Source: Desulfobacterales bacterium
GTDB taxonomy: Bacteria; Desulfobacterota; Desulfobacteria; Desulfobacterales; ETH-SRB1
Direction of reading: 5' to 3'
Length of the DNA: 26,738 nt
NCBI GenBank assembly: GCA_030017395.1
Contig: JASEIZ010000001.1
Span: 1-26,738, forward strand
Of this stretch, positions 1-11,369 are shown one piece after another. The notes below the pieces were generated by a model that was not told the origin of the DNA, searched no databases, and worked only from the letters and a program-made list of their open reading frames with translations. Positions within the stretch are counted from its first letter, which is position 1, and each line of letters starts with the position of its first letter. Position numbers and translations under genes: made by a program.

Positions 1-371
1 CTCCAGAGTGCGCCGGTCGTCTGTTTTAACACCATAAATACCAACGTGCTGTTTACTATATGAAAAATCAGACCAACCGTATGATGCATTCCTGGGATTA
101 ATCCATAGATATGGCAATCAAGCATATGAGAAAGCCAGACCACAGGATGCCAATATGTTGAGCTCTTAAAACTGAAAGCCCACGATATGCCTTCCCAAGT
201 TAGTCCTTTTTGTACAAAATGATTTTTCAGGATATAGGAATCATCATCAAAGTTAATAAACGGATAATTCATCACCTGCCAATAGGCGGTCAGTGTAGCT
301 ATGACGAGAAGCAGACAGATCAAAATATCATAGCGGGTATTAAATATTCTATGTTTATCAGTATTGTTCAT
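1..371 (-). CDS. TMTC-like GT-C membrane glycosyltransferase (paralog 2), 5' part only; runs off the window edge
   Basis: Not in the ORF track; I translated it by hand from ATG at 371: MNNTDKHRIFNTRYDILICLLLVIATLTAYWQVMNYPFINFDDDSYILKNHFVQKGLTWEGISWAFS...YWHPVVWLSHMLDCHIYGL..GMHH. It aligns end to end with the N-terminus of 1201-2382 (FDD, WHP.xWLSHMLD, G.HH). Confidence 0.85.
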   Translation of the reverse strand, partial: MNNTDKHRIFNTRYDILICLLLVIATLTAYWQVMNYPFINFDDDSYILKNHFVQKGLTWEGISWAFSFKSSTYWHPVVWLSHMLDCHIYGLIPGMHHTVGLIFHIVNSTLVFMVLKQTTGALW

Positions 372-412
372 ATCTTCTCGTAGAATATTACGGTTAATTT
401 TTTACAAGTTCG

Positions 413-1261
413 TCACTTTTGTCTATATGGAATGCCAGCTTGATATAATTGCAATCTTTTTGTTAAACCACGGGCAAGTTCTTTAGGGCATTGCGTTAAA
501 GACATATTAAGTCCTTGTTGAGCTGCTTTAACCGCCTTGTCAAATTTACCTGCTTCCGCATAAGCCGCTGCAAGCGCATCCAGAGACAAAGGATGACTAT
601 AGTTTTGTAGCCTGCATAGTTTCTCAGCAAGTTTAACCGCTTCTTTGCCGTTTATAAATTTATTATCTTTATGTGTGGCATATATCCAGGATAGATTATA
701 TAAAGCCTCTGCCATATTCGGACTGATTTGCAATGTTTTTTTGTAAAAGAGAATTGCGTTTTCGATATCTCCTTTATTTGCATAGATCTTCCCCAGGTTA
801 TAGTATGCTCCGCCATACTTGGGGTTTATCCGCAAAGCTTCTTTGTAATGATAAATCGCATCATTAACTTTCTCCTTGCCGGCAAGAAGAACTCCAAGAT
901 TATTGTGAGCTTTGGCATTGTTCGGATTTATCAGCAATGCTTTATTATAATGATAACTCGCATCACTTATCTTTCCTTGACGGGCCAGCGTACAACCCAG
1001 GTTGGCGTGAGCCTCCTCGTAGTTCGGATTAATTTTTAATGCTTTGTAAAATTGAACAACCGCATCATCAAGCTTTCCATTTCTCATTAAAGCATGTCCC
1101 AGTTCGCAATTGGCAACACAGTTATCTTTTGTCACATTAAGAGTATGCTTAAAAATAGTAATTCCGTTTTGCCAGTGTTCTACCTGAAACCATGTGCATA
1201 TCATAAAAAAACAAGCACTATGCCTGAAAATGTCGGCAGTAAAATCCTCCGGCTTTGCCAT
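413..1261 (-). CDS. TPR-repeat C-terminal part of a frameshifted TMTC-like glycosyltransferase (homologous part about 413-1204)
   Basis: It has multiple TPR units (AHANLGCTLARQGK, AHNNLGVLLAG, AYYNLGKIY, ALYNLSWIY). FMICTWFQVEHWQN is the expected last TM helix of the upstream ORF. The first ~17 aa of the ORF call are probably not real. Confidence 0.8.
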   Translation of the reverse strand: MAKPEDFTADIFRHSACFFMICTWFQVEHWQNGITIFKHTLNVTKDNCVANCELGHALMRNGKLDDAVVQFYKALKINPNYEEAHANLGCTLARQGKISDASYHYNKALLINPNNAKAHNNLGVLLAGKEKVNDAIYHYKEALRINPKYGGAYYNLGKIYANKGDIENAILFYKKTLQISPNMAEALYNLSWIYATHKDNKFINGKEAVKLAEKLCRLQNYSHPLSLDALAAAYAEAGKFDKAVKAAQQGLNMSLTQCPKELARGLTKRLQLYQAGIPYRQK

Positions 1262-2382
1262 TTTGTCAATATATCACGCATTCCCCATGCAATTATAATA
1301 AAAATACCAATCAGCGGCACATACGTATATCTGTCAGCCATGCTTTGGCAACCTGTCTGAATCAGCCCGATTACAGGAACAAGCGTACCAAGGTACCAAA
1401 GCCATCCAGTAACAAGATAAGGGAGCCTGCGCGCTGCAAAGATTATTAGGGCCGATACACATAAAAGTAAAATTCCTGCTAACAGCACATTCCAAATCAG
1501 TAACTTATGATATGGATAAAAAAAAGCCAGGTTTATCGGCCAGAACATCTTTATAATATAACCAATATAAGACACAAGCGCATTTGAAATGCGCATCATC
1601 AATGGGATAGATTCCAGAGATGCAACCGCACCACCATGCTGCTGAATAGAAAAAGTAATAATGCTCGAAATTGCTGATAAAGCAAACAGGGGGATCTTTT
1701 CCCAAATTAAAGCGATAAGGATTCGGCAGGCAGAGGTTTGTGTTTTATAAGTCTTTTGTTTGAAACGTGAAAGAGGCCAGAAATCAAGCAAGAGCAGTGT
1801 AAAAGGCAGGGTCACTATCATCGGCTTTGACATCAGCCCAAAAACAAACAAAACAACAAGCAATAAATAATTCGTTTTCGACTCATTCCTGGTATATCTC
1901 ACATATGCCAATATGCTGAGGATCCAAAAAAAGGCACATAATACATCCTTTCGTTCAGCAACCCATGCTACCGATTCCACGTGCAGGGGATGCAATGCAA
2001 AAAGGGCAGCCACAAAACCGCTCGGCCAGACAGCCCCTGTCATCCAATTAAGAAGAATAAATAATAAGATTGTATTGGCTATATGGATCTGCAAGCTTGT
2101 CAGGTGATGCCCCATAGGGCTCAAGCCATAAAGCTCAACATCAAGCATGTGAGAAAGCCATGTAAGAGGATGCCAGTTGCCTGCATAATCAGCGGAAAAG
2201 GCCCAGATGATGCTTTCGCGGTTTAATCCGGCCTTAACGTTTGGATTGTCAATAACGTAAAGTTCATCATCAAAATAAACAAAATCATAATTTATTACCT
2301 GTAAATATACAGAAAGGGTTGCTGCGACAAGAAACAGGCAGATAATTATTTCTTTGCGTCTTATTTTGAAAAAATTATCCAT
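1201..2382 (-). CDS. GT-C (TMTC/protein O-mannosyltransferase-like) multi-TM N-terminal part; ends early at the frameshift
   Basis: Polytopic membrane protein with YFDDELYV, WHPLTWLSHMLD, FALHPLHVESVAWVAERKD, LMSKPM and ADRYTY motifs, typical of bacterial TMTC-like TPR glycosyltransferases. The TGA falls inside a TM segment. Confidence 0.8.
   Translation of the reverse strand: MDNFFKIRRKEIIICLFLVAATLSVYLQVINYDFVYFDDELYVIDNPNVKAGLNRESIIWAFSADYAGNWHPLTWLSHMLDVELYGLSPMGHHLTSLQIHIANTILLFILLNWMTGAVWPSGFVAALFALHPLHVESVAWVAERKDVLCAFFWILSILAYVRYTRNESKTNYLLLVVLFVFGLMSKPMIVTLPFTLLLLDFWPLSRFKQKTYKTQTSACRILIALIWEKIPLFALSAISSIITFSIQQHGGAVASLESIPLMMRISNALVSYIGYIIKMFWPINLAFFYPYHKLLIWNVLLAGILLLCVSALIIFAARRLPYLVTGWLWYLGTLVPVIGLIQTGCQSMADRYTYVPLIGIFIIIAWGMRDILTKWQSRRILLPTFSGIVLVFL
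1205..1211 (-). repeat. T7 homopolymer at the frameshift point
   Basis: The minus strand reads GTT TTT TTA TGA. With one more T it reads GTT TTT TTT ATG ATA TGC (VFFMIC) and joins the two ORFs into 656 aa. Confidence 0.85.
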
Positions 2383-2554
2383 TATTGATTATTTTGAATC
2401 GGCTCTTACTTAAATTTTAAAGGCCGCAGTTAGAACTGTTCAGATAGTTGGGGCTGTCACATAATCGGTCTTAATACAATTTTCCTCCCTACACGCAAAA
2501 CCTGAGCCTGAAATAAAAATTGAACAAAAGACGGCTTTTTTCAGAGGCCTCAAC

Positions 2555-2590
2555 ATAAAAAAGGGAGGTGATTAATCCTCCCTTTTTTAT
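2555..2590 (-). terminator. Intrinsic terminator after pilA (bidirectional form)
   Basis: ATAAAAAAGGGAGG-tgattaat-CCTCCCTTTTTTAT is a perfect 14-bp inverted repeat with A/T tails, about 20 nt past the pilA stop. Confidence 0.85.
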
Positions 2591-2611
2591 TAAATAAATA
2601 TAAATGATAAG

Positions 2612-2989
2612 TTAGCTTAAATTACCAGCGGAGTCAAGTGTATAGGTTGTGGTGGAACCGGTGTGGCTGAATGTCGCATTAGTAGAAATTACGCCGCCGG
2701 TTTCGGAAATACCTGTACCGCCAATAGCAACGTTAGGATCTACAGAGTAAGACGGTGCTCCTGCTGTGCCTAAAGAGGTGCCGGTAGTTGACGTATCGGC
2801 AAAATAAGCCATGGCTGTATTGTAATAATTCTTTCCTGCGGATTGAGCGGCTGAATTTTGGCCTCTTGTTCTGTATGACAGGAAGTTCGGGATGGCGATG
2901 GCTGCCAGGATACCGATGATCGCAATAACAATCATCAGCTCGATGAGTGTAAAACCTTTTTGGTTGTTGCCTCTTAGTTTTTGTAACAT
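2612..2989 (-). CDS. pilA: Type IVa major pilin (125 aa precursor, 113 aa mature)
   Basis: [12 protein letters not shown]|[24 protein letters not shown] is a class III signal peptide with E5. SD AGGAGG precedes ATG 2989, so the track's 3160 start is too long. It lies next to pilSR. Confidence 0.95.
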
Positions 2990-3138: not shown

Positions 3139-3154
3139 AGCAATTAATATGCCA
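3139..3154 (-). promoter_or_regulatory. Sigma54 (-24/-12) promoter of pilA
   Basis: The minus strand reads TGGCATATTAATTGCT, matching TGGCAC-N5-TTGCW with exact GG-N10-GC spacing. This fits activation by the neighbouring PilR. Confidence 0.85.
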
Positions 3155-3563: not shown

Positions 3564-3701
3564 CAAATACGCACATTGTTTAGAGCGCTCATGGTTTGAA
3601 TCTTAACAATTTCCCCACTAATCCGCAGTGAACCTTTATATTTTTGTGCCGTTTGTGCCTTTTTGCGGCCATCACAAATTCTTCGAGCCAGAGATTTATT
3701 G

Positions 3702-3732
3702 TTGACGATATTATACAAAGCTGTATACTATC
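3702..3732 (+). promoter_or_regulatory. Sigma70 promoter of the AbiE operon with an overlapping inverted-repeat operator
   Basis: TTGACG-16 nt-TATACT. GATATTATACA-aagc-TGTATACTATC (3707-3732) is an 11-bp inverted repeat with 1 mismatch across the spacer and -10. Confidence 0.7.
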
Positions 3733-3745
3733 GCAATCAATTATA

Positions 3746-3772
3746 CTGGATTCCGGCTTTCGCCGGAATGAC
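3746..3772. repeat. REP-like hairpin in the toxin 5' leader
   Basis: CTGGATTCCGGCTTTCGCCGGAATGAC is the exact reverse complement of 10528-10554. Confidence 0.8.
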
Positions 3773-3794
3773 AGAAAGGTGGACGGTGTCGTCT

Positions 3795-4673
3795 ATGTAT
3801 AACGAAATAAAGACAAAAAAATCTGAGTTGTTGCAGTTGATTTTACTGGACAACCTTTACGCTCAATCCGGATCAGATCGTATCATTTTTCAGGGCGGAA
3901 CTGCATTAAGATGGGTCTATGGCGGAATGAGGTTTTCGGAAGATCTCGATTTTGTAACCGACTTGCCCAAGGAAGATGTGGAAAACATCTTAGCCGGAAC
4001 ATTTCAAAAAACTCAAAAGGCATGTATCGCCCAGTTTGGTCAGGGGAAATCAGAGCATAATCGTAAAAGCGGTCGGAAAGAAGCGATCAGGATGTTTTTT
4101 ATATATCGACCTGAAACTCACCGTGAAAGAATTGCTGTAAAGTTAGAGTTCGAATTTTTAGCGCCCGGCCAAAAACCGCAGTTTCGAAAATTTATTCTGA
4201 AGGATCTGCCGTCAGTTGCAGGACTGGTCACCAGCGGAAAGCTGATAATTCCATACTCAAGCAGTATCATTTTAGCAGAAACTCCCGAGGAAATCCTGTC
4301 TGATAAAATCAGAGCTCTCTATGAAAGAAGATACCTCAAAGGGAGGGATATTTATGATATCTGGTGGATAAAAAAACAACTAAAAGCATCCCCAACGTGG
4401 ATCAAGGTCAGGGAAAAACTTGTTATGTATCAAGCTCCTTTTGTTCCGGCCAGAGGAGCATCTTACTTTCAACAGGGGGAATCCACCTCAAGCATCATAG
4501 AGGCCTTAAAAAGAGATTTACCCCGTTTTTTGCCACAAAATATCATCGCCATGTATCAGGAAGCAAATTTTAGCTATTTCATCGCTACCCTGAGGGAAGT
4601 CACCTCAGACCTTTTAAATCAGGGAATGGCCGAAAATTTTAAAGATTATGAAAGAAGAAAGATCAACCCTTAA
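3795..4673 (+). CDS. abiEii: AbiEii-family nucleotidyltransferase toxin (type IV TA), 292 aa
   Basis: IIFQGGTALRWVYGGMRFSEDLDF and EEILSDKIRAL..R....RDIYDIWW motifs. The start was moved to ATG 3795 (GTG 3786 is possible) because the longer call runs through the promoter and REP. Confidence 0.85.
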   Translation: MYNEIKTKKSELLQLILLDNLYAQSGSDRIIFQGGTALRWVYGGMRFSEDLDFVTDLPKEDVENILAGTFQKTQKACIAQFGQGKSEHNRKSGRKEAIRMFFIYRPETHRERIAVKLEFEFLAPGQKPQFRKFILKDLPSVAGLVTSGKLIIPYSSSIILAETPEEILSDKIRALYERRYLKGRDIYDIWWIKKQLKASPTWIKVREKLVMYQAPFVPARGASYFQQGESTSSIIEALKRDLPRFLPQNIIAMYQEANFSYFIATLREVTSDLLNQGMAENFKDYERRKINP

Positions 4674-5235
4674 GCGTTTGAAACTCCTTCCCGTCCTTTT
4701 TCGCAAGCAGGATGCGGAAAAATTGACTCCTCATACGGGTATGTTTTTATCACGGGCAGTTAAAAAAGGATTGATCTATCGTATTAATAGGGGAAACTAT
4801 ATCAATTCCTTTCTCTGCGGCCTTCCAGGCGTGGAGGAGACAGCATGTTTTTTAAAACCTCCGGCCTACATCTCCTGCGAATGGGCATTGAATTATCATG
4901 GTATCACCCTGCAGTCTCCCATGGTATGCACCGTTGTAACTCTAAGCACCTCTGTCGGCAAGAAACGAAATATTCAGTATCAGGGAATCACCATTGAATT
5001 TTCAAGGATCACCCCTTCGCTCTTTTTCGGGTTTACTTACAGGGACAGGTTTTATATGGCTTCGCCTGAAAAAGCCATTCTGGACACCCTCTATTACCGC
5101 GGAATGATTCCAGTCCAGGATGAGTTGGAACTGGATAAGGTGGACTTTAATCTCCTTTCAAAAATGGCCAGCAGATATCCTTTATCCGTCTCCCGTTCAA
5201 TAGTTAATTTAAGAGATCAAGTTTCGCACCCTTGA
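4648..5235 (+). CDS. abiEi: AbiEi-family antitoxin / transcriptional regulator
   Basis: N-terminal wHTH-like segment (LSRAVKKGLIYRINRGNY), then PAYISCEWALNYHG, TVVT and MASPEKAILDTLY. It overlaps the toxin stop by 26 nt. Confidence 0.8.
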   Translation: MKEERSTLKRLKLLPVLFRKQDAEKLTPHTGMFLSRAVKKGLIYRINRGNYINSFLCGLPGVEETACFLKPPAYISCEWALNYHGITLQSPMVCTVVTLSTSVGKKRNIQYQGITIEFSRITPSLFFGFTYRDRFYMASPEKAILDTLYYRGMIPVQDELELDKVDFNLLSKMASRYPLSVSRSIVNLRDQVSHP

Positions 5236-5269: not shown

Positions 5270-6634
5270 TTAAGTATCGAGTTTTTCAAGCCTGTAGCGT
5301 AGCGAATCAAAGCTTATATTGAGAAGTTTAGCGGCCTTTGTCTTTGAACCATTTGTTTTTTGAAGAGCTTTTTTTATCAAAAGCCTCTCGACCGTTGCCA
5401 GTTCCTCATTAAGATTAATACCTTTCTCAGGAATATCGACATTTAAAGCATTATCCTGATCATGTCCGCTGTCTTCGGGCATAATAAGGTTTTCCGGCAG
5501 GATTATATTAGTAGTCTCAAGCGCCACACTTCTTTCAATAATATTTTCCAGCTCTCTTACATTTCCTGGAAAAGGATGCTGCATAAGAAGCTGAAGCGCA
5601 TAAGGAGAGATCTTTTTAATCTCCTTTTTAAATTCTTTTGAATACTTTTCTATAAAATAGCTTGTCAGCAGGGGAATGTCTTCATTTCTTTCTCTTAAAG
5701 GCGGAATCTCAACGGGAATTACGTTGAGCCTGTAATAGAGATCTTCTCTAAAACCGCCACTTTTAACTTTCTGCGCCAAATCCTGATTTGTGGCGGATAT
5801 AATCCTTACATCCACCTTGATATCTTCTGCCCCGCCTATCCTTCTGAACGTTTTTTCCTGCACCACTCGAAGAAGTTTTACCTGAAGAAACGGCGGCAAC
5901 TCACCGATCTCGTCAAGAAAAACCGTTCCCTTGTGGGCAACCTCAAAAAGCCCGGCCTTATCAGCAGCAGCTCCGCTGAATGACCCCTTCATGTAACCGA
6001 ACAGTTCGCTTTCAAGGAGGTTTTCCGGTATGCCCCCGCAGTTTATAACAACAAATGATTTATCTTTTCTGGAACTGTTTTCATGAATGGCCATGGCGAC
6101 CAGCTCTTTACCTGTGCCGCTTTCTCCGGTAATAAGAATGTTGGTGGCAGTATCCGCCACTTTTTTAACAAGTGAATAGACCTTCAGCATCCCCTTGCTT
6201 TTCCCAATCATATTTCCAAAAGAAAGGCTTTTCTCCACATCCTTCATAAAAACCGCATCTTCCTTTTTAACGTCCTTCCTGCTGAGCGCATCACTTATTA
6301 CAGCCTTGAAATCTTCAACATCGAAATTCTTCTCAAGATAGTCGTATGCGCCTTCCCTCATTGCGGCAACGGCTGTCTCTCCGGAAGCATAAGCCGTGAT
6401 TAATATGACCATTGTTTCCGGTGAAATCTCTTTGATAGCTTTCAAAACATCGATTCCATCGACCTTGGGCATCTTCAAATCGGTAATTGCCAGGTCAAAT
6501 TTATGCTTTTTGCAAAAGCCCAGCGCCTCTTTGCCTCCTGAAGCAGAGGTAACTTCATGCCCTTCTCTGGCAAGCAGGATCTCTAAAAATTCTCTCATGC
6601 CCCGATCATCATCAACAACGAGAATCTTCGCCAT
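5270..6634 (-). CDS. pilR: Sigma54-dependent response regulator PilR
   Basis: REC + AAA+ (GESGTGKE, ESELFGYMKGSFSGA, LDEIGE, PGNVRELEN) + Fis HTH. pilS-pilR-pilA synteny. Confidence 0.85.
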   Translation of the reverse strand: MAKILVVDDDRGMREFLEILLAREGHEVTSASGGKEALGFCKKHKFDLAITDLKMPKVDGIDVLKAIKEISPETMVILITAYASGETAVAAMREGAYDYLEKNFDVEDFKAVISDALSRKDVKKEDAVFMKDVEKSLSFGNMIGKSKGMLKVYSLVKKVADTATNILITGESGTGKELVAMAIHENSSRKDKSFVVINCGGIPENLLESELFGYMKGSFSGAAADKAGLFEVAHKGTVFLDEIGELPPFLQVKLLRVVQEKTFRRIGGAEDIKVDVRIISATNQDLAQKVKSGGFREDLYYRLNVIPVEIPPLRERNEDIPLLTSYFIEKYSKEFKKEIKKISPYALQLLMQHPFPGNVRELENIIERSVALETTNIILPENLIMPEDSGHDQDNALNVDIPEKGINLNEELATVERLLIKKALQKTNGSKTKAAKLLNISFDSLRYRLEKLDT

Positions 6635-8264
6635 CTAAAATCTCCTCTTGCGGCAGCAAAACTACACAATCCGTGCCTTTTCCCTGTTCGCTTTTGATTG
6701 TGATTTTGCCCATGTGGCTTTCCACGATACTGTTTACGATTGCCATTCCAAGGCCTGTGCCGTTTTTCTTTGTTGTGTAAAAAGGTTCAAACACTTTGTC
6801 TTGATTTTTTGCTTCGATTCCACATCCATTATCACTTATCAATATCTCAAGATATTTTTTCCCGTCATTAAAAACCTGTCTTGTTTCTATTTTCAGTATG
6901 CCTTTTTCAGGCATGGCCTGAACAGCATTTAAAATCAGGTTCAATATTACCTGCCTTATCTCCGCCTTGTTGCCATATATATTGTTATGATCGCACAAGT
7001 TGCTATTTACTTCAATATCTTCACTCCATTCAGGGCTAAATCGAAGAGATTCAAGGACATCATCTATAACGGCTTTAACGTCAATATTTTTTCGCTCAGA
7101 CTGCTTGGGCCGCGCCAGAAGAAGGAAGTCTTTAACAAAACCTTCAAGTCGATCCTTTCCGCTTAAAATGATCTGCATGAGCCTTCTGTCTGTTTCGTCC
7201 AGATTTAAATCTTTACTCAACATCTGAATCGGCCCGCTGATTGATGCAAGAGGGTTCCTTATTTCATGGGCAAGGCCTGCGGCCATTTCACCAACAAATG
7301 CAAGTCTTTTGTTTCTTTCAATATTGGCTTCCATTTCTTTAATAACCGTTAAATCCTGAAAGATCAGGATATCACCTATTTTTTCTTTGTTACCGTCAAC
7401 AAGAGGAGAAATGGAACAACCCATTATCTTTCCTGAATCTGCGACTTCGAGTCTGCTACCATTCTTCAATTGGACTTCTTTGTCCAGCATTTTTGAAAGA
7501 ACAGGAAAGACATCATAGATTTTTTTGTTTATAATTTCGGAATGCAAAAAACCGGTGATCTTTTCAGCTTCGGTGTTAAAGGATTTTATGTTTCTATGAA
7601 GATCGACTGTTAAAATACCTGTATTTACAGACTCGATTATACTTTTGTGCAGCAGGTCAAGCTGATCAAAAGCGCTTTCCTTTTCCGCAAGAAGCTCTCT
7701 GGTCTTTTGCTCCTGTTTAACAGCATAACTTGTCAATAATGCAATAATATAAAAAGATATAATATGGACAAAAATTCTCGAAAAAACATAACCTGCATCG
7801 CAGTCGTAATTATAGTCCCACTGGTATATGGGTCGAATAATACCGTAGTATTCCAGATCAAGCAGCATCCCGTAAAATATGCTGCAGGCCGAGGCTGAAA
7901 TTAAGCCGCCTCTGCCGGCCAAAAAAAGCGCTGAATATATAATAACAAGTGGGTACAAAACAGAATAGATGCTTTCAATTCCGCCTGTTACATATACAAG
8001 TCCGGTTATCAATAAAACATCTAAAAAGCTTTGCAGGTATATGTTTACTCTGTTGTTTTTTATTATCTTTGGGATAAAAAGGCAGGTAAAAGAAAAAAGA
8101 TAGGTTAATGCTACAATGAAATATATTGGCGCATACGCTGTCTGCGAAGAAGATTCTCCTGCTTTAATCCGTATAAAAGTTGCAATACCGAGCAGGAAGG
8201 TTGCAATTACGACCCTTAACAACATCAACCATCGAATTCTTCTCTTCAAAGAATTATCTTTCAA
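6612..8264 (-). CDS. pilS: Membrane sensor histidine kinase PilS
   Basis: About 6 TM N-terminus ([14 protein letters not shown]), a PAS-like segment, H-box LAHEIRNPL, and N/G boxes ([21 protein letters not shown]). Confidence 0.85.
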
Positions 8265-9534
8265 ACACGACCTTCCCGCCCACCATGGTAAGAACAGCCC
8301 TTCCCTTCATATTCCAGCCGTCAAATGGGGTGTTGCGACTTAAAGATTGAAAGCCGGCGGCATCCACCTTATAGGTTATGTCGGTGTCTATAATGGTTAT
8401 ATCGGCAGGCTTGCCTTTTTTTATGCCGTGATCAAGCCTCAAAATACCGGCAGGATTTGTTGACATCTTTGCTATAAGATCAATGATTGTTATTACACCC
8501 TTTTCAACCAGCTTTAAACCCAGAGAAAGCGATGTCTCAAGCCCTATTATTCCGTTTGCCGCGATATCAAATTCAACACCTTTTTCAATGGAAGAATGGG
8601 GTGCATGATCTGTGGCGATAACGTCAATAGTTCCATCGGACAATCCTTCAAGCACCGCTTCCCTGTCCCGGTCCGAACGCAGGGGGGGATTCATCTTTGC
8701 ATTTGTGTTATAACCCGTCACCGCATCCTCTGTCAGCGTAAAATAGTGCGGCGCTGTTTCAGCGGTCACACGAACGCCTCTGGTTTTTGCATCTCTTATC
8801 GCGCGCACAGATTCAAGCGTACTTACATGGGCAATATGAAGAGGAGCCCCTGTTAATTCACAAAGCGCTATGTCACGCATGACCATAATGCTTTCAGCGG
8901 CATTTGGTATTCCGCTAAGCCCCATTCGCGCCGCAACCGCCCCTTCATTCATAACTCCGTTTGCGGTAAGATCAAGATTCTCGCAGTGGGATATTACAAG
9001 AAGACCGAATCCCTTTGCATATTCCAGAGCCCTGCGCATCAGCCGGCTGTCTGTTACAGGGTTTCCGTCATCGGAAACAGCCACAGCTCCGGCATTCTTC
9101 AAATCTCCATATTCGCAAAGGCCTTTCCCTTGAAGCCCGGGGCTTATTGCGGCAACAGGATAAACACGAACCGTGTCCGCAAGGCCGGCTTTTTTTAATA
9201 TATATTCGGTAACCTGGCTGTTGTCGTTTACAGGGTTTGTGTTCGGCATTGTACAAACCGCCGTAAAACCGCCAAAGGCCGCCGCCATGCAGCCTGTTTC
9301 TATAGTTTCTTTATATTCATGCCCTGGTTCACGAAAATGTACATGCATATCAATCAGCCCGGGTGTCACTATTTTGCCTGAAGCATCAATGACTTTGAAC
9401 CCTGAACCCTGAACCCTGAACCCTGAACCCTGCTCTTTTATTTCAACTATTTTCCCATCTTCAATCAAAATATCCATGATGCCGTCTAAATTGCCTGGAT
9501 CAATTACTCTTCCGCCCTTAATCAGTATCAACAT
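8254..9534 (-). CDS. pyrC: Dihydroorotase (type I)
   Basis: [26 protein letters not shown] and ATDHAPH motifs. The start was set at ATG 9534 behind SD AGGAGG. Confidence 0.95.
9396..9430. repeat. Five perfect TGAACCC heptamers inside pyrC
   Basis: Counted directly; they encode [12 protein letters not shown] in the enzyme's N-terminal region. Confidence 0.95.
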
Positions 9535-10456
9535 TGCGCACACCTCCTGCAGTCAGATATAAAAGAGCCATACGAACGGCAACGCCGTTTGTTACCTGAT
9601 CAATAATTATCGAGTATGGTCCATCCGCGACCTCCGGAGCTATTTCAACGCCCCGATTAACCGGACCTGGATGCATGACAAGCACATCTTTTTTAGCGCC
9701 TTTCATTCTTTCCATTGTTAACCCATACTCTTTTGAATACTCGCGTTCAGTAGAAAACAAAAAACCTTTTTGCCGCTCCTTTTGTATCCTGAGCATCATT
9801 ATAATATCAGCATTACAAACAGCATCATTCACATTATACGTAACAGAAGCCCCGAGGGTTTCAATTCCTTTTGGAATCATGGTCGGTGGGCCGGCCAGCA
9901 CAACATCTGCTCCCATTTTTGCAAACCCGATTATATTTGATCTTGCTACTCTGCTGTGGGATATATCGCCGATTATCGCGATACGCAGCCCTGAAATTCT
10001 TCCCTTGTTTTCTCTGACAGTCATAAGATCAAGCAGCGACTGGGTTGGATGCGAATGCATGCCGTCACCTGCATTGATAACGGATGTCCTGATGATTTTT
10101 GCCAGCATATGTGAAGCGCCTGCCATAGAATGACGCATAACAATCACATCAGGGTTCATGGCTTCAAGATTCCGGGCTGTATCTATAAGTGTTTCCCCTT
10201 TTACTAAACTGCTGGCGCTTCCGGATATTGAAATACTGTCGGCGCTGAGCCGCTTTGCCGCAATATCAAAAGATGTTCGTGTACGAGTGCTGGGTTCATA
10301 GAAAAAAAGCACTATTGTCTTACCTCGCAAAGTCGGAACCTTTTTGACAGGTCTTTTTGAAATTTCCTTCATTTGTTGTGCAGTATTAAGAATCAAGGTA
10401 ATTTCATCAACAGAAAGCGATTCCATGTCCAGAATATCTTTTTTTGAAAACTGCAT
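9518..10456 (-). CDS. pyrB: Aspartate carbamoyltransferase catalytic subunit
   Basis: [31 protein letters not shown] and MHPGPVNRG motifs. Confidence 0.97.
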
Positions 10457-10468
10457 AATCCACCTGTT

Positions 10469-10722
10469 AGGGTTTACGGTTCAAAGTTCAGGGTTTTCAC
10501 AGGAATGACAATCTCGTCTAATCGTCAGTCATTCCGGCGAAAGCCGGAATCCAGTGCTTTGTCAGTTTGGGTTCAAAGGTTCACAGTTCCAAGTTCAGGG
10601 TTAATCGCATTGCGATTTTTTTATCTGCCTGTGCGTTGCGCGCAGACAGGTGCCATTGATTTCACCAGGCAAGCATTATGAATCTGTCAACCTCTGAACC
10701 TCTGAACCTCTGAACGGTTACG
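10469..10722. repeat. Composite intergenic repeat: GGTTCA-type arms, REP core, further palindrome, CTGAACCT arm
   Basis: The core 10494-10561 is 64/68 identical to 21853-21920 by manual alignment. It also contains CCTGTGCGTTGCGCGCAGACAGG and three AACCTCTG-type units. Confidence 0.8.
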
Positions 10723-10724
10723 TT

Positions 10725-11369
10725 TCATTTCAATAAATGCCCAATCCTGTTCCACCTGACTCCAAAACTTCCATTATCCCATGACCAGTAAACAATAAAT
10801 GCTTTTCCTTTTACAGCTTTTAAATCAACAAAACCCCAAAACCTGCTGTCATAGCTGTGGTCTCTGTTATCCCCCATCACAAAAAGAGAAGCAGGAGGCA
10901 CAGTAACAGGTCCAAAATTGTCCCTTTTTTGAAAAACTCCGGGAATTATATGTGGGTCCGTGTAAATACCATGATCCTGATTAAGACGCATGTTGTTAAT
11001 ATATACCTGTTTATTACGTATCTCAACCACGTCTCCGGAAATACCGACAACCCTTTTTATAAAATCCTTGTTTGGATCCTCTGGGAACTTGAAAACTACG
11101 ATGTCCCCACGCTTTGGATTTTTAATATGGATAAGCGTAATATCTGAAAATGGAATCTTAACCCCGTAAATAAACTTATTTACCAGTATATGATCGCCTA
11201 TTAAAAGCGTCTGCTTCATTGAGCCTGATGGGATTTTAAATGCCTGAACAATAAAGGTTCGTATAAATAAAGCTATTAATATTGCAACAACTATCGCTTC
11301 AATGTTCTCCCGAAGAGCGCTTCTTTTTGTAGCAAAAATTTCTGTTTTAGAAGAATCTTTTGATTTCAA
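10725..11369 (-). CDS. lepB: Signal peptidase I
   Basis: AFKIPSGSM (catalytic Ser), GDHILVNK, FIKRVVG (catalytic Lys) and GDNRDHSYDSR. Confidence 0.97.
   Translation of the reverse strand: MKSKDSSKTEIFATKRSALRENIEAIVVAILIALFIRTFIVQAFKIPSGSMKQTLLIGDHILVNKFIYGVKIPFSDITLIHIKNPKRGDIVVFKFPEDPNKDFIKRVVGISGDVVEIRNKQVYINNMRLNQDHGIYTDPHIIPGVFQKRDNFGPVTVPPASLFVMGDNRDHSYDSRFWGFVDLKAVKGKAFIVYWSWDNGSFGVRWNRIGHLLK

Follow-up and report, generated by a model that had tools for sequence, protein, structure and literature searches.

A putative TfpW-type pilin glycosylation cassette with tandem GT-C/TPR genes behind pilA in a Desulfobacterales bacterium

The 26,738-nt stretch of DNA analyzed here, referred to as the window, is the whole of contig C111 (JASEIZ010000001.1), the longest contig of a 2.24-Mb, 372-contig metagenome-assembled genome (MAG) of a Desulfobacterales bacterium that is 90% complete. 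On its minus strand lies a type IV pilus locus with the order pilS, pilR, a sigma-54-like element, the pilin gene pilA, a terminator hairpin, and two genes for putative membrane glycosyltransferases, GT1 and the start of GT2, inside which the contig ends (Table 1). GT1, which also encodes tetratricopeptide repeats (TPRs), starts 229 nt past the pilA stop codon on the same strand. This bears out the first-pass annotation, made from the sequence alone, which had described tandem genes for proteins with multiple transmembrane (TM) segments and TPRs running co-directionally behind a Ser/Thr-rich pilA, with the reservation that GT1 is split by a run of seven T (T7) and that GT2 is partial. The closest public matches of the window are cold-seep, marine-sediment, and similar metagenomes, and the named homologues come from MAGs of Desulfobacterales, Syntrophobacterales, and other Thermodesulfobacteriota.

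The pilA gene encodes a pre-pilin of 125 amino acids (aa) with the class III signal G-F-T-L-I-E, and its orthologues in relatives show 44-75% identity. The mature pilin of 113 aa contains no Cys, carries 24 Ser/Thr among its last 60 residues, and has the C terminus ...AGNLS; by composition, this is the Cys-free, Ser/Thr-rich pilin with a terminal Ser that had been described at the outset. A search for the strict sigma-54 pattern TGGCAC-N4-6-TTGC gave no match, the element TGGCAT-N5-TTGCT being a one-mismatch match to it; as read from the sequence, the element fits PilR-dependent expression of pilA. The hairpin following pilA was missed by a simple terminator scan and was folded separately.

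In GT1, the membrane part and the TPR part are encoded in different frames, and the T7 run lies where they meet. With seven T, the reading frame gives V-F-L-stop; an eighth (T8) would give V-F-F-M-I-C-T-W-F-Q, matching F-V-S-F-M-V-C-T-W-L-Q of an intact 615-aa paralogue on contig C246 of the same MAG, to whose TPR part that of GT1 is 53% identical. Because contigs of related strains (~94% identical) all have the extra base at this site, in all of three cold-seep runs, the fused gene is the normal state; the best metagenome runs contained only a fifth of the sampled words and come from these related strains. The T7 state of GT1 reflects either an error in the assembly or a genuine off state. 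Both GT1 and GT2 carry the acidic motif previously noted just after TM1 (F-V-Y-F-D-D-E and F-I-N-F-D-D-D, respectively), and an alignment of 49 homologues confirmed its conservation, with F34, D38, and D39 invariant throughout. Further invariant residues are found in the block HP.H.ES..W..ERKD, at K186, in the block ADRYTY, and at Y275, P282, and P290.

In the spacer between pilA and GT1, the same related strains have 91 additional bases (window 2487/2488). Coverage of pilA by their contigs is poor over the variable C-terminal half (window 2600-2860), while the conserved N-terminal part shows very high coverage depth, contributed by many organisms; this unevenness points to pilin hypervariability.

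Table 1. Features at and around the pilA locus (positions in the window)
Feature	Position	Strand	Evidence and remarks
GT2, first 123 aa (TM1, FDD loop, TM2-3)	3..371	-	51% identical to GT1; contig end
GT1 TPR part, 282-aa open reading frame	413..1261	-	TPR_1 3.9e-34 and many other TPR families; frame differs from membrane part
GT1 membrane (GT-C) part, 393 aa	1201..2382	-	Weak PMT_2 4.6e-5; invariant D38 D39; TfpW profile match; GT-C/TMTC fold matches
T7 run splitting GT1	1205..1211	-	T8 would restore a single 656-aa protein
Terminator-like hairpin after pilA	2555..2590	-	14-bp stem and U run; RNA fold -19.6 kcal/mol, z -4.6
pilA, major type IVa pilin	2612..2989	-	N_methyl E 6e-12; NCBIfam PilA_Myxo N-terminal match 2.3e-17
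Sigma-54-type promoter element TGGCAT-N5-TTGCT	3139..3154	-	~150 nt upstream of pilA start codon; read directly from sequence
AbiEii/AbiEi pair between pilR and pilA	3663-5235	+	AbiEii toxin Pfam 2.8e-25; AbiEi-like antitoxin weak
pilR, sigma-54 response regulator	5270..6634	-	Pfam Response_reg, Sigma54_activat 3.9e-71, HTH_8
pilS, sensor kinase	6612..8264	-	Pfam 6TM_PilS 7.7e-23, HisKA, HATPase_c, PAS

More copies of the enzyme gene were found in the same MAG on short contigs, namely one on C246, two in tandem on C136, both cut, and one on C249. The best matches of the GT2 fragment (residues 1-123) are orthologues in the related genomes G015 and G022, and those of one C136 copy, which starts at about residue 133, are the same; C136 therefore probably continues the window as pilA-GT1-GT2-GT3, in which case it would hold the rest of GT2, including its TPR part, and a third copy. 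A search for contig-end overlaps joining the array contigs found none. On another contig of the MAG, C96, there is a methyltransferase gene 85% identical to one 3' of the array in the relative G009; on either side of it are AAA_14/DUF4143 ATPase genes resembling those found upstream of pilA in that genome. This contig probably represents the distal end of the locus seen in the window.

Database profiles say little about the membrane part. Pfam returned for the GT proteins only TPR repeats and weak PMT_2 matches (24.1-33.4 bits against a cut-off of 26.1), with neither PF02366 PMT nor MIR domains in the scans; NCBIfam had nothing for the membrane part, and PDB sequence searches with the membrane domain, as a single sequence or as a profile, gave no match. 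An AlphaFold2 (AF2) model was made of the mended (T8) GT1 (pLDDT 84.7, pTM 0.75). Its top 14 matches among Swiss-Prot entries of the AlphaFold Database were all TMTC1-4, aligned over their full length with E values of 1e-23 to 4e-19, TM-scores of 0.58-0.72, and 15-22% identity. In an exhaustive structural comparison, residues 4-430 aligned with solved GT-C enzymes at Z 13.5-17 (AglB 17.0, Pmt4 16.8, Pmt1/2 16.7, ALG12 16.3, STT3 16.1, ArnT 14.3, PglB 14.2, AftA 13.6, AftB 13.5), values that helical proteins reach easily; every structural match other than those to TPRs was a GT-C enzyme covering most of the membrane domain. When the whole model was compared with the PDB by Foldseek, TPR proteins dominated the matches; a model of the membrane domain alone was poor (pLDDT 68.6), and its top matches, at weak E values, were still exclusively GT-C enzymes. 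Altogether, the structure predictions indicate that GT1-type proteins are enzymes of a TMTC-like GT-C fold with a C-terminal TPR domain, the latter predicted by homology to be periplasmic.

The proposal of a GT-C fold in the first-pass annotation thus holds on the AF2 model, with TMTC1-4 matched at full length and the membrane part matching Pmt, STT3/AglB, and ArnT. Its more specific assignment to the TMTC type stands as far as the fold and the DD motif go and falters at the domain level, where Pfam scans returned no DUF1736 match for GT1 at E<=0.01 nor for the C246 and C249 paralogues at E<=1; all human TMTCs, by comparison, match this domain at E<1e-30. TMTC1-4 are eukaryotic protein O-mannosyltransferases that likewise have a GT-C domain followed by TPRs, lumenal rather than periplasmic, and a DD in loop 1, and the block A-L-F-A-L-H-P-L-H-V-E-S found here resembles L-L-F-A-V-H-P-I-H-T of human TMTC3 (PMC7801869). 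The two would differ in the carrier, which in bacteria would be undecaprenyl-phosphate or another polyprenyl-phosphate instead of dolichyl-phosphate, and in the acceptor, the proposed acceptor here being pilin and that of TMTCs being cadherin domains. The PMT family and ArnT share the GT-C fold and belong to the same subclass, with Pmt4, Pmt1/2, and ArnT aligning over ~330-350 residues; here, however, a TPR domain takes the place of the PMT or ArnT periplasmic domains, and there is no MIR. TfpO/PilO and PglL also modify Ser/Thr of pilin in the periplasm, and tfpO, too, lies directly after pilA. These enzymes belong to the unrelated Wzy_C family, lack TPRs, and transfer preassembled oligosaccharides linked to undecaprenyl-pyrophosphate; in agreement with the initial view that the window's proteins are not TfpO/PglL-like, Pfam scans of GT1 and of the C246 and C249 paralogues gave no Wzy_C match.

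The closest parallel is TfpW of Pseudomonas, a 646-aa protein that has 11 TM segments, carries a DDX in periplasmic loop 1 and a proline-rich motif in a loop further on, and ends in a periplasmic TPR domain; it is encoded directly after pilA and required for pilin arabinosylation; its homologues, 30-47% identical to it, adjoin pilA in Azotobacter, Acinetobacter, Teredinibacter, P. indica, and Kingella (10.1101/2020.04.19.049825). We took the pilB/pilA/tfpW locus of P. paraeruginosa ATCC 9027 for comparison. The membrane-domain profile, searched against the P. paraeruginosa genome with hmmsearch, had a single match (E 1e-11), a 641-aa gene directly after pilA and opposite pilB, i.e., tfpW. BLASTP aligned a core of 104 aa with TfpW at 32% identity (E 7e-10), and hhalign aligned 387 columns, which is the whole membrane domain, with a probability of 95.8% and E 6.6e-9. 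The likeness extends to gene position, directly after pilA on the same strand in both, to a length of ~640-660 aa, to a polytopic GT-C domain whose first periplasmic loop carries Asp-Asp, to periplasmic TPRs at the C terminus, and to a Ser/Thr-rich target pilin. Where the DD motif of GT1 and GT2 aligns, TfpW has W-D-D-S; in the late loop, Y275-x6-P282-x7-P290 resembles Y-x6-P-F-x7-P of TfpW but is one residue shorter and lacks the Phe. These sequence comparisons make GT1-type proteins distant homologues of TfpW that share its architecture and gene position. The annotation's idea that the pathway stands apart from known pilin enzymes and lacks a characterized bacterial homologue acting on pilin is not supported by this comparison.

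There are also differences from TfpW. It is encoded by a single gene, whereas here there are tandem arrays of at least two paralogues; no tfpX was seen here, in an array that is cut by the contig end; and the family of these proteins is huge, spans many phyla, and is for the most part not linked to pilins. TfpW is a D-arabinofuranosyl transferase of P. aeruginosa group IV (Pa5196) and P. paraeruginosa (PA7, ATCC 9027), and the sugar here is probably not D-arabinofuranose, as set out below.

We next consider the linkage to pilA in relatives. Of 20 pilA loci in genomes from the window's order, 12 have close copies (49-62% identical), one or two each, on the same strand, within ~2.4 kb, and usually directly behind pilA, counts that are inflated by relatedness since these kin are not independent; three further loci have a distant copy. 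In G003, G004, G009, G015, G036, and G039, all copies in the genome at E<1e-20 lie within ~2.4 kb of pilA. Because the adjacency recurs in most related genomes, it is not due to chance. A tree of 158 membrane domains placed all pilA-linked copies of the window's family in one clade of 18 leaves (support 0.95), to which GT1, C246, and one C136 copy belong. The six leaves of this clade without linkage to pilA all come from short contigs or lie where a contig starts. The C249 copy falls in a clade without pilA linkage in relatives. Elsewhere in the tree, pilA-linked copies occur in G010/G015 together with G022, in G039, in G036, in G029, and in a Verrucomicrobia MAG. With linked copies scattered in this way, linkage must have arisen more than once, which suggests repeated recruitment of such genes to pilA. 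The association with pilA that had been anticipated from the window is therefore strongly enriched in its own lineage and is not a feature of the wider family, in which it was met in 1 of 80 loci. Three loci in relatives deserve mention. In G008 (L163), only the last 65 residues of the membrane part and the TPR part remain behind pilA, and in G012 (L166), pilA is followed by a partial methyltransferase gene and no glycosyltransferase; both are signs of cassette decay. In G015 (L168), a PMT-type GT-C gene (9423-11000; PF02366 3.2e-12) lies ~1.5 kb past the pilA-linked GT-TPR gene.

For the donor sugar, we searched for the DprE1-type ALO domain (PF04030), which was not found in the present MAG (G000, 90% complete) or in the cassette carriers G001, G009, and G013 and was found in the P. 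paraeruginosa control; with no DprE1-like gene in these four genomes, D-arabinofuranose is unlikely. A gene of the GT2 family (not to be confused with the GT2 gene of the window), encoding 247-249 aa, lies 3' of the array in G001, G006, G039, and G036. The best solved match of its product is an archaeal dolichyl-phosphate mannose synthase (E 1e-7), and its best NCBIfam matches, all sub-threshold, are AglJ, a dolichyl-phosphate hexose transferase, and the polyprenyl-phospho-GalNAc synthase PpgS. Methyltransferase genes occur 3' of the array in G009 and in G013, as well as on C96 of the present MAG, and G015 encodes a fusion of methyltransferase and GT2-family domains. Our best guess for the donor is a polyprenyl-phosphate-linked sugar of hexose type, possibly methylated.

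Taken together, we read the locus as a TfpW-type pilin glycosylation cassette, which we regard as somewhat more probable than its competitors combined, and the system is accordingly best described as a variant of the TfpW system and not as an unprecedented pathway, its putative function being argued from fold, homology, and synteny. Starting from what is directly supported, namely gene order, fold, homology to TfpW, conserved motifs, and synteny, we infer catalysis, acceptor, donor, and benefit as follows. PilS and PilR would drive pilA from the upstream sigma-54-like element, and the genes behind the pilA terminator would supply GT-C glycosyltransferases of the inner membrane, encoded in tandem and equipped with periplasmic TPR domains. 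Working at the periplasmic face, each of them would use the invariant Asp-Asp of loop 1 to remove a sugar from a polyprenyl-phosphate-linked donor and would transfer it to Ser/Thr hydroxyls of the exposed C-terminal half of the pilin before the latter enters the fiber, with the TPR domain holding the pilin or a partner. A complex of the intact paralogue P0001 with mature pilin was predicted with a score of 0.00, which is evidence neither way. The donor is probably a polyprenyl-phosphate sugar of hexose type, made by the Dpm1/AglJ-like GT2-family enzyme and perhaps methylated. Pilins glycosylated by TfpW and TfpO are protected from pilus phages (PMC11841053); by analogy, the benefit here would be a pilus masked from pilus-specific phages or one with changed surface properties.

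Several points weigh against this reading, beyond the relatedness of the genomes in the synteny sample. Identity to TfpW is only ~23% over the membrane domain, and neither Pfam nor NCBIfam has a TfpW model; our literature searches found no papers on these enzymes in Desulfobacterota. The assembled GT1 carries a frameshift, GT2 runs off the end of the contig, and a strong terminator stands between pilA and GT1, so that the genes downstream would be read by read-through or from a promoter of their own. No GT2-family donor synthase was found beside the array in the present MAG, in which only a fragment similar to the GT2-family gene occurs, on contig C273. Ser/Thr counts in the last 60 pilin residues, a comparison suggested in the annotation, show only a weak trend among relatives, with 15-24 in those with the enzyme versus 11-21 in those without. 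Finally, the wider family is vast and spans many phyla: at 50% clustering, cut-offs of E<=0.001 and E<=1e-30 gave 97,468 and 26,618 representatives, respectively. Of 80 family loci sampled in Planctomycetota, Verrucomicrobiota, Acidobacteriota, Nitrospinota, and other phyla, only one has a pilin-like gene no more than 5 kb away. Most members must therefore have other targets, and the link to pilin is a property of certain clades and not of the whole family.

These last figures lend some credit to a different explanation, by which the proteins are general O-glycosyltransferases of periplasmic or surface proteins (TMTC/PMT type), with pilin at most one of their substrates and the adjacency to pilA reflecting shared regulation or a convenient insertion site. 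A family so large and mostly located away from pilins fits such a role, as do the frequent tandem arrays in Planctomycetota and Verrucomicrobiota, the C249 copy and some relatives' copies in a clade without pilA linkage, and the fact that TMTCs, the best structural matches, serve a class of proteins and not one protein. On the other hand, the only copies in six related genomes sit within ~2.4 kb of pilA, the well-supported clade is pilA-linked throughout wherever this can be judged, such linkage arose at several places in the tree, and the characterized homologue TfpW is dedicated to pilin. We consider general O-glycosylation unlikely, though it deserves to be taken seriously. An extended form of the pilin reading, closer to the original proposal, is more doubtful still: the enzymes would form a pilin-dedicated clade of the TMTC-like family whose tandem paralogues place different sugars or use different sites, and slippage in short homopolymers (such as T7/T8 in GT1) would turn single copies on and off, producing within a population pilus glycoforms that shift against pilus-specific phages.

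The 80 sampled loci also showed frequent tandem arrays of these genes, with as many as five copies. Across Desulfobacterota, Planctomycetota, Verrucomicrobiota, Acidobacteriota, Nitrospinota, and others, identity in the membrane domain stays at 46-57%, which is unusually high for an uncharacterized membrane enzyme.

It is improbable that the acceptor is not a protein at all but lipid A or the lipopolysaccharide core, an exopolysaccharide, or a cell wall glycan, as for ArnT and Emb/Aft, with the TPRs organizing a complex. The membrane domain does align with ArnT, AftA, and AftB as well, and GT2-family and methyltransferase genes beside an array are also typical of polysaccharide loci; yet the best matches are protein O-mannosyltransferases and oligosaccharyltransferases, the characterized proteins that combine TPR and GT-C (TMTC and TfpW) act on proteins, no polysaccharide export or polymerase genes occur within the window, and the tight linkage to pilA would be left unexplained. 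That the proteins are non-catalytic aids to pilus assembly in the manner of PilF/PilW/Tgl, with the GT-C-like domain as a mere anchor, is hardly credible: the TPR part superposes on PilF (Z 16.7) and PilW (Z 16.3) and has sub-threshold NCBIfam matches to Tgl and PilW, but such TPR matches are generic, the membrane domain, at the cross-phylum identity given above, is the most conserved part, invariant acidic and basic residues occupy the GT-C catalytic and donor-binding positions, and PilF, PilW, and Tgl are outer-membrane lipoproteins and not polytopic inner-membrane proteins.

Type IV pili of anaerobic sediment Desulfobacterota have been discussed in connection with attachment and cell-cell contacts. 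If the locus is indeed a TfpW-type cassette, this kind of pilin glycosylation would extend from a few Gammaproteobacteria and Neisseriaceae to these organisms, and TfpW-type enzymes could come as arrays that use a donor other than arabinose. It would also provide a candidate substrate for one clade of an uncharacterized TMTC-like bacterial family with tens of thousands of members. No new principle is involved, since architecture, gene position, and role would be those of TfpW.

The remainder of the window contains pyrC, pyrB, lepB, pgpA, larC, and a chemotaxis cluster, with no sugar genes among them. The AbiEii/AbiEi pair is inserted between pilR and pilA; in several relatives, e.g., G022, G040, and G029, pilR and pilA are direct neighbors. 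At the right end of the window, the final 41 bases are also present within at least five more of the MAG's contigs (C7, C33, C44, C54, and C91); they are a dispersed repeat, which probably interrupted the assembly.

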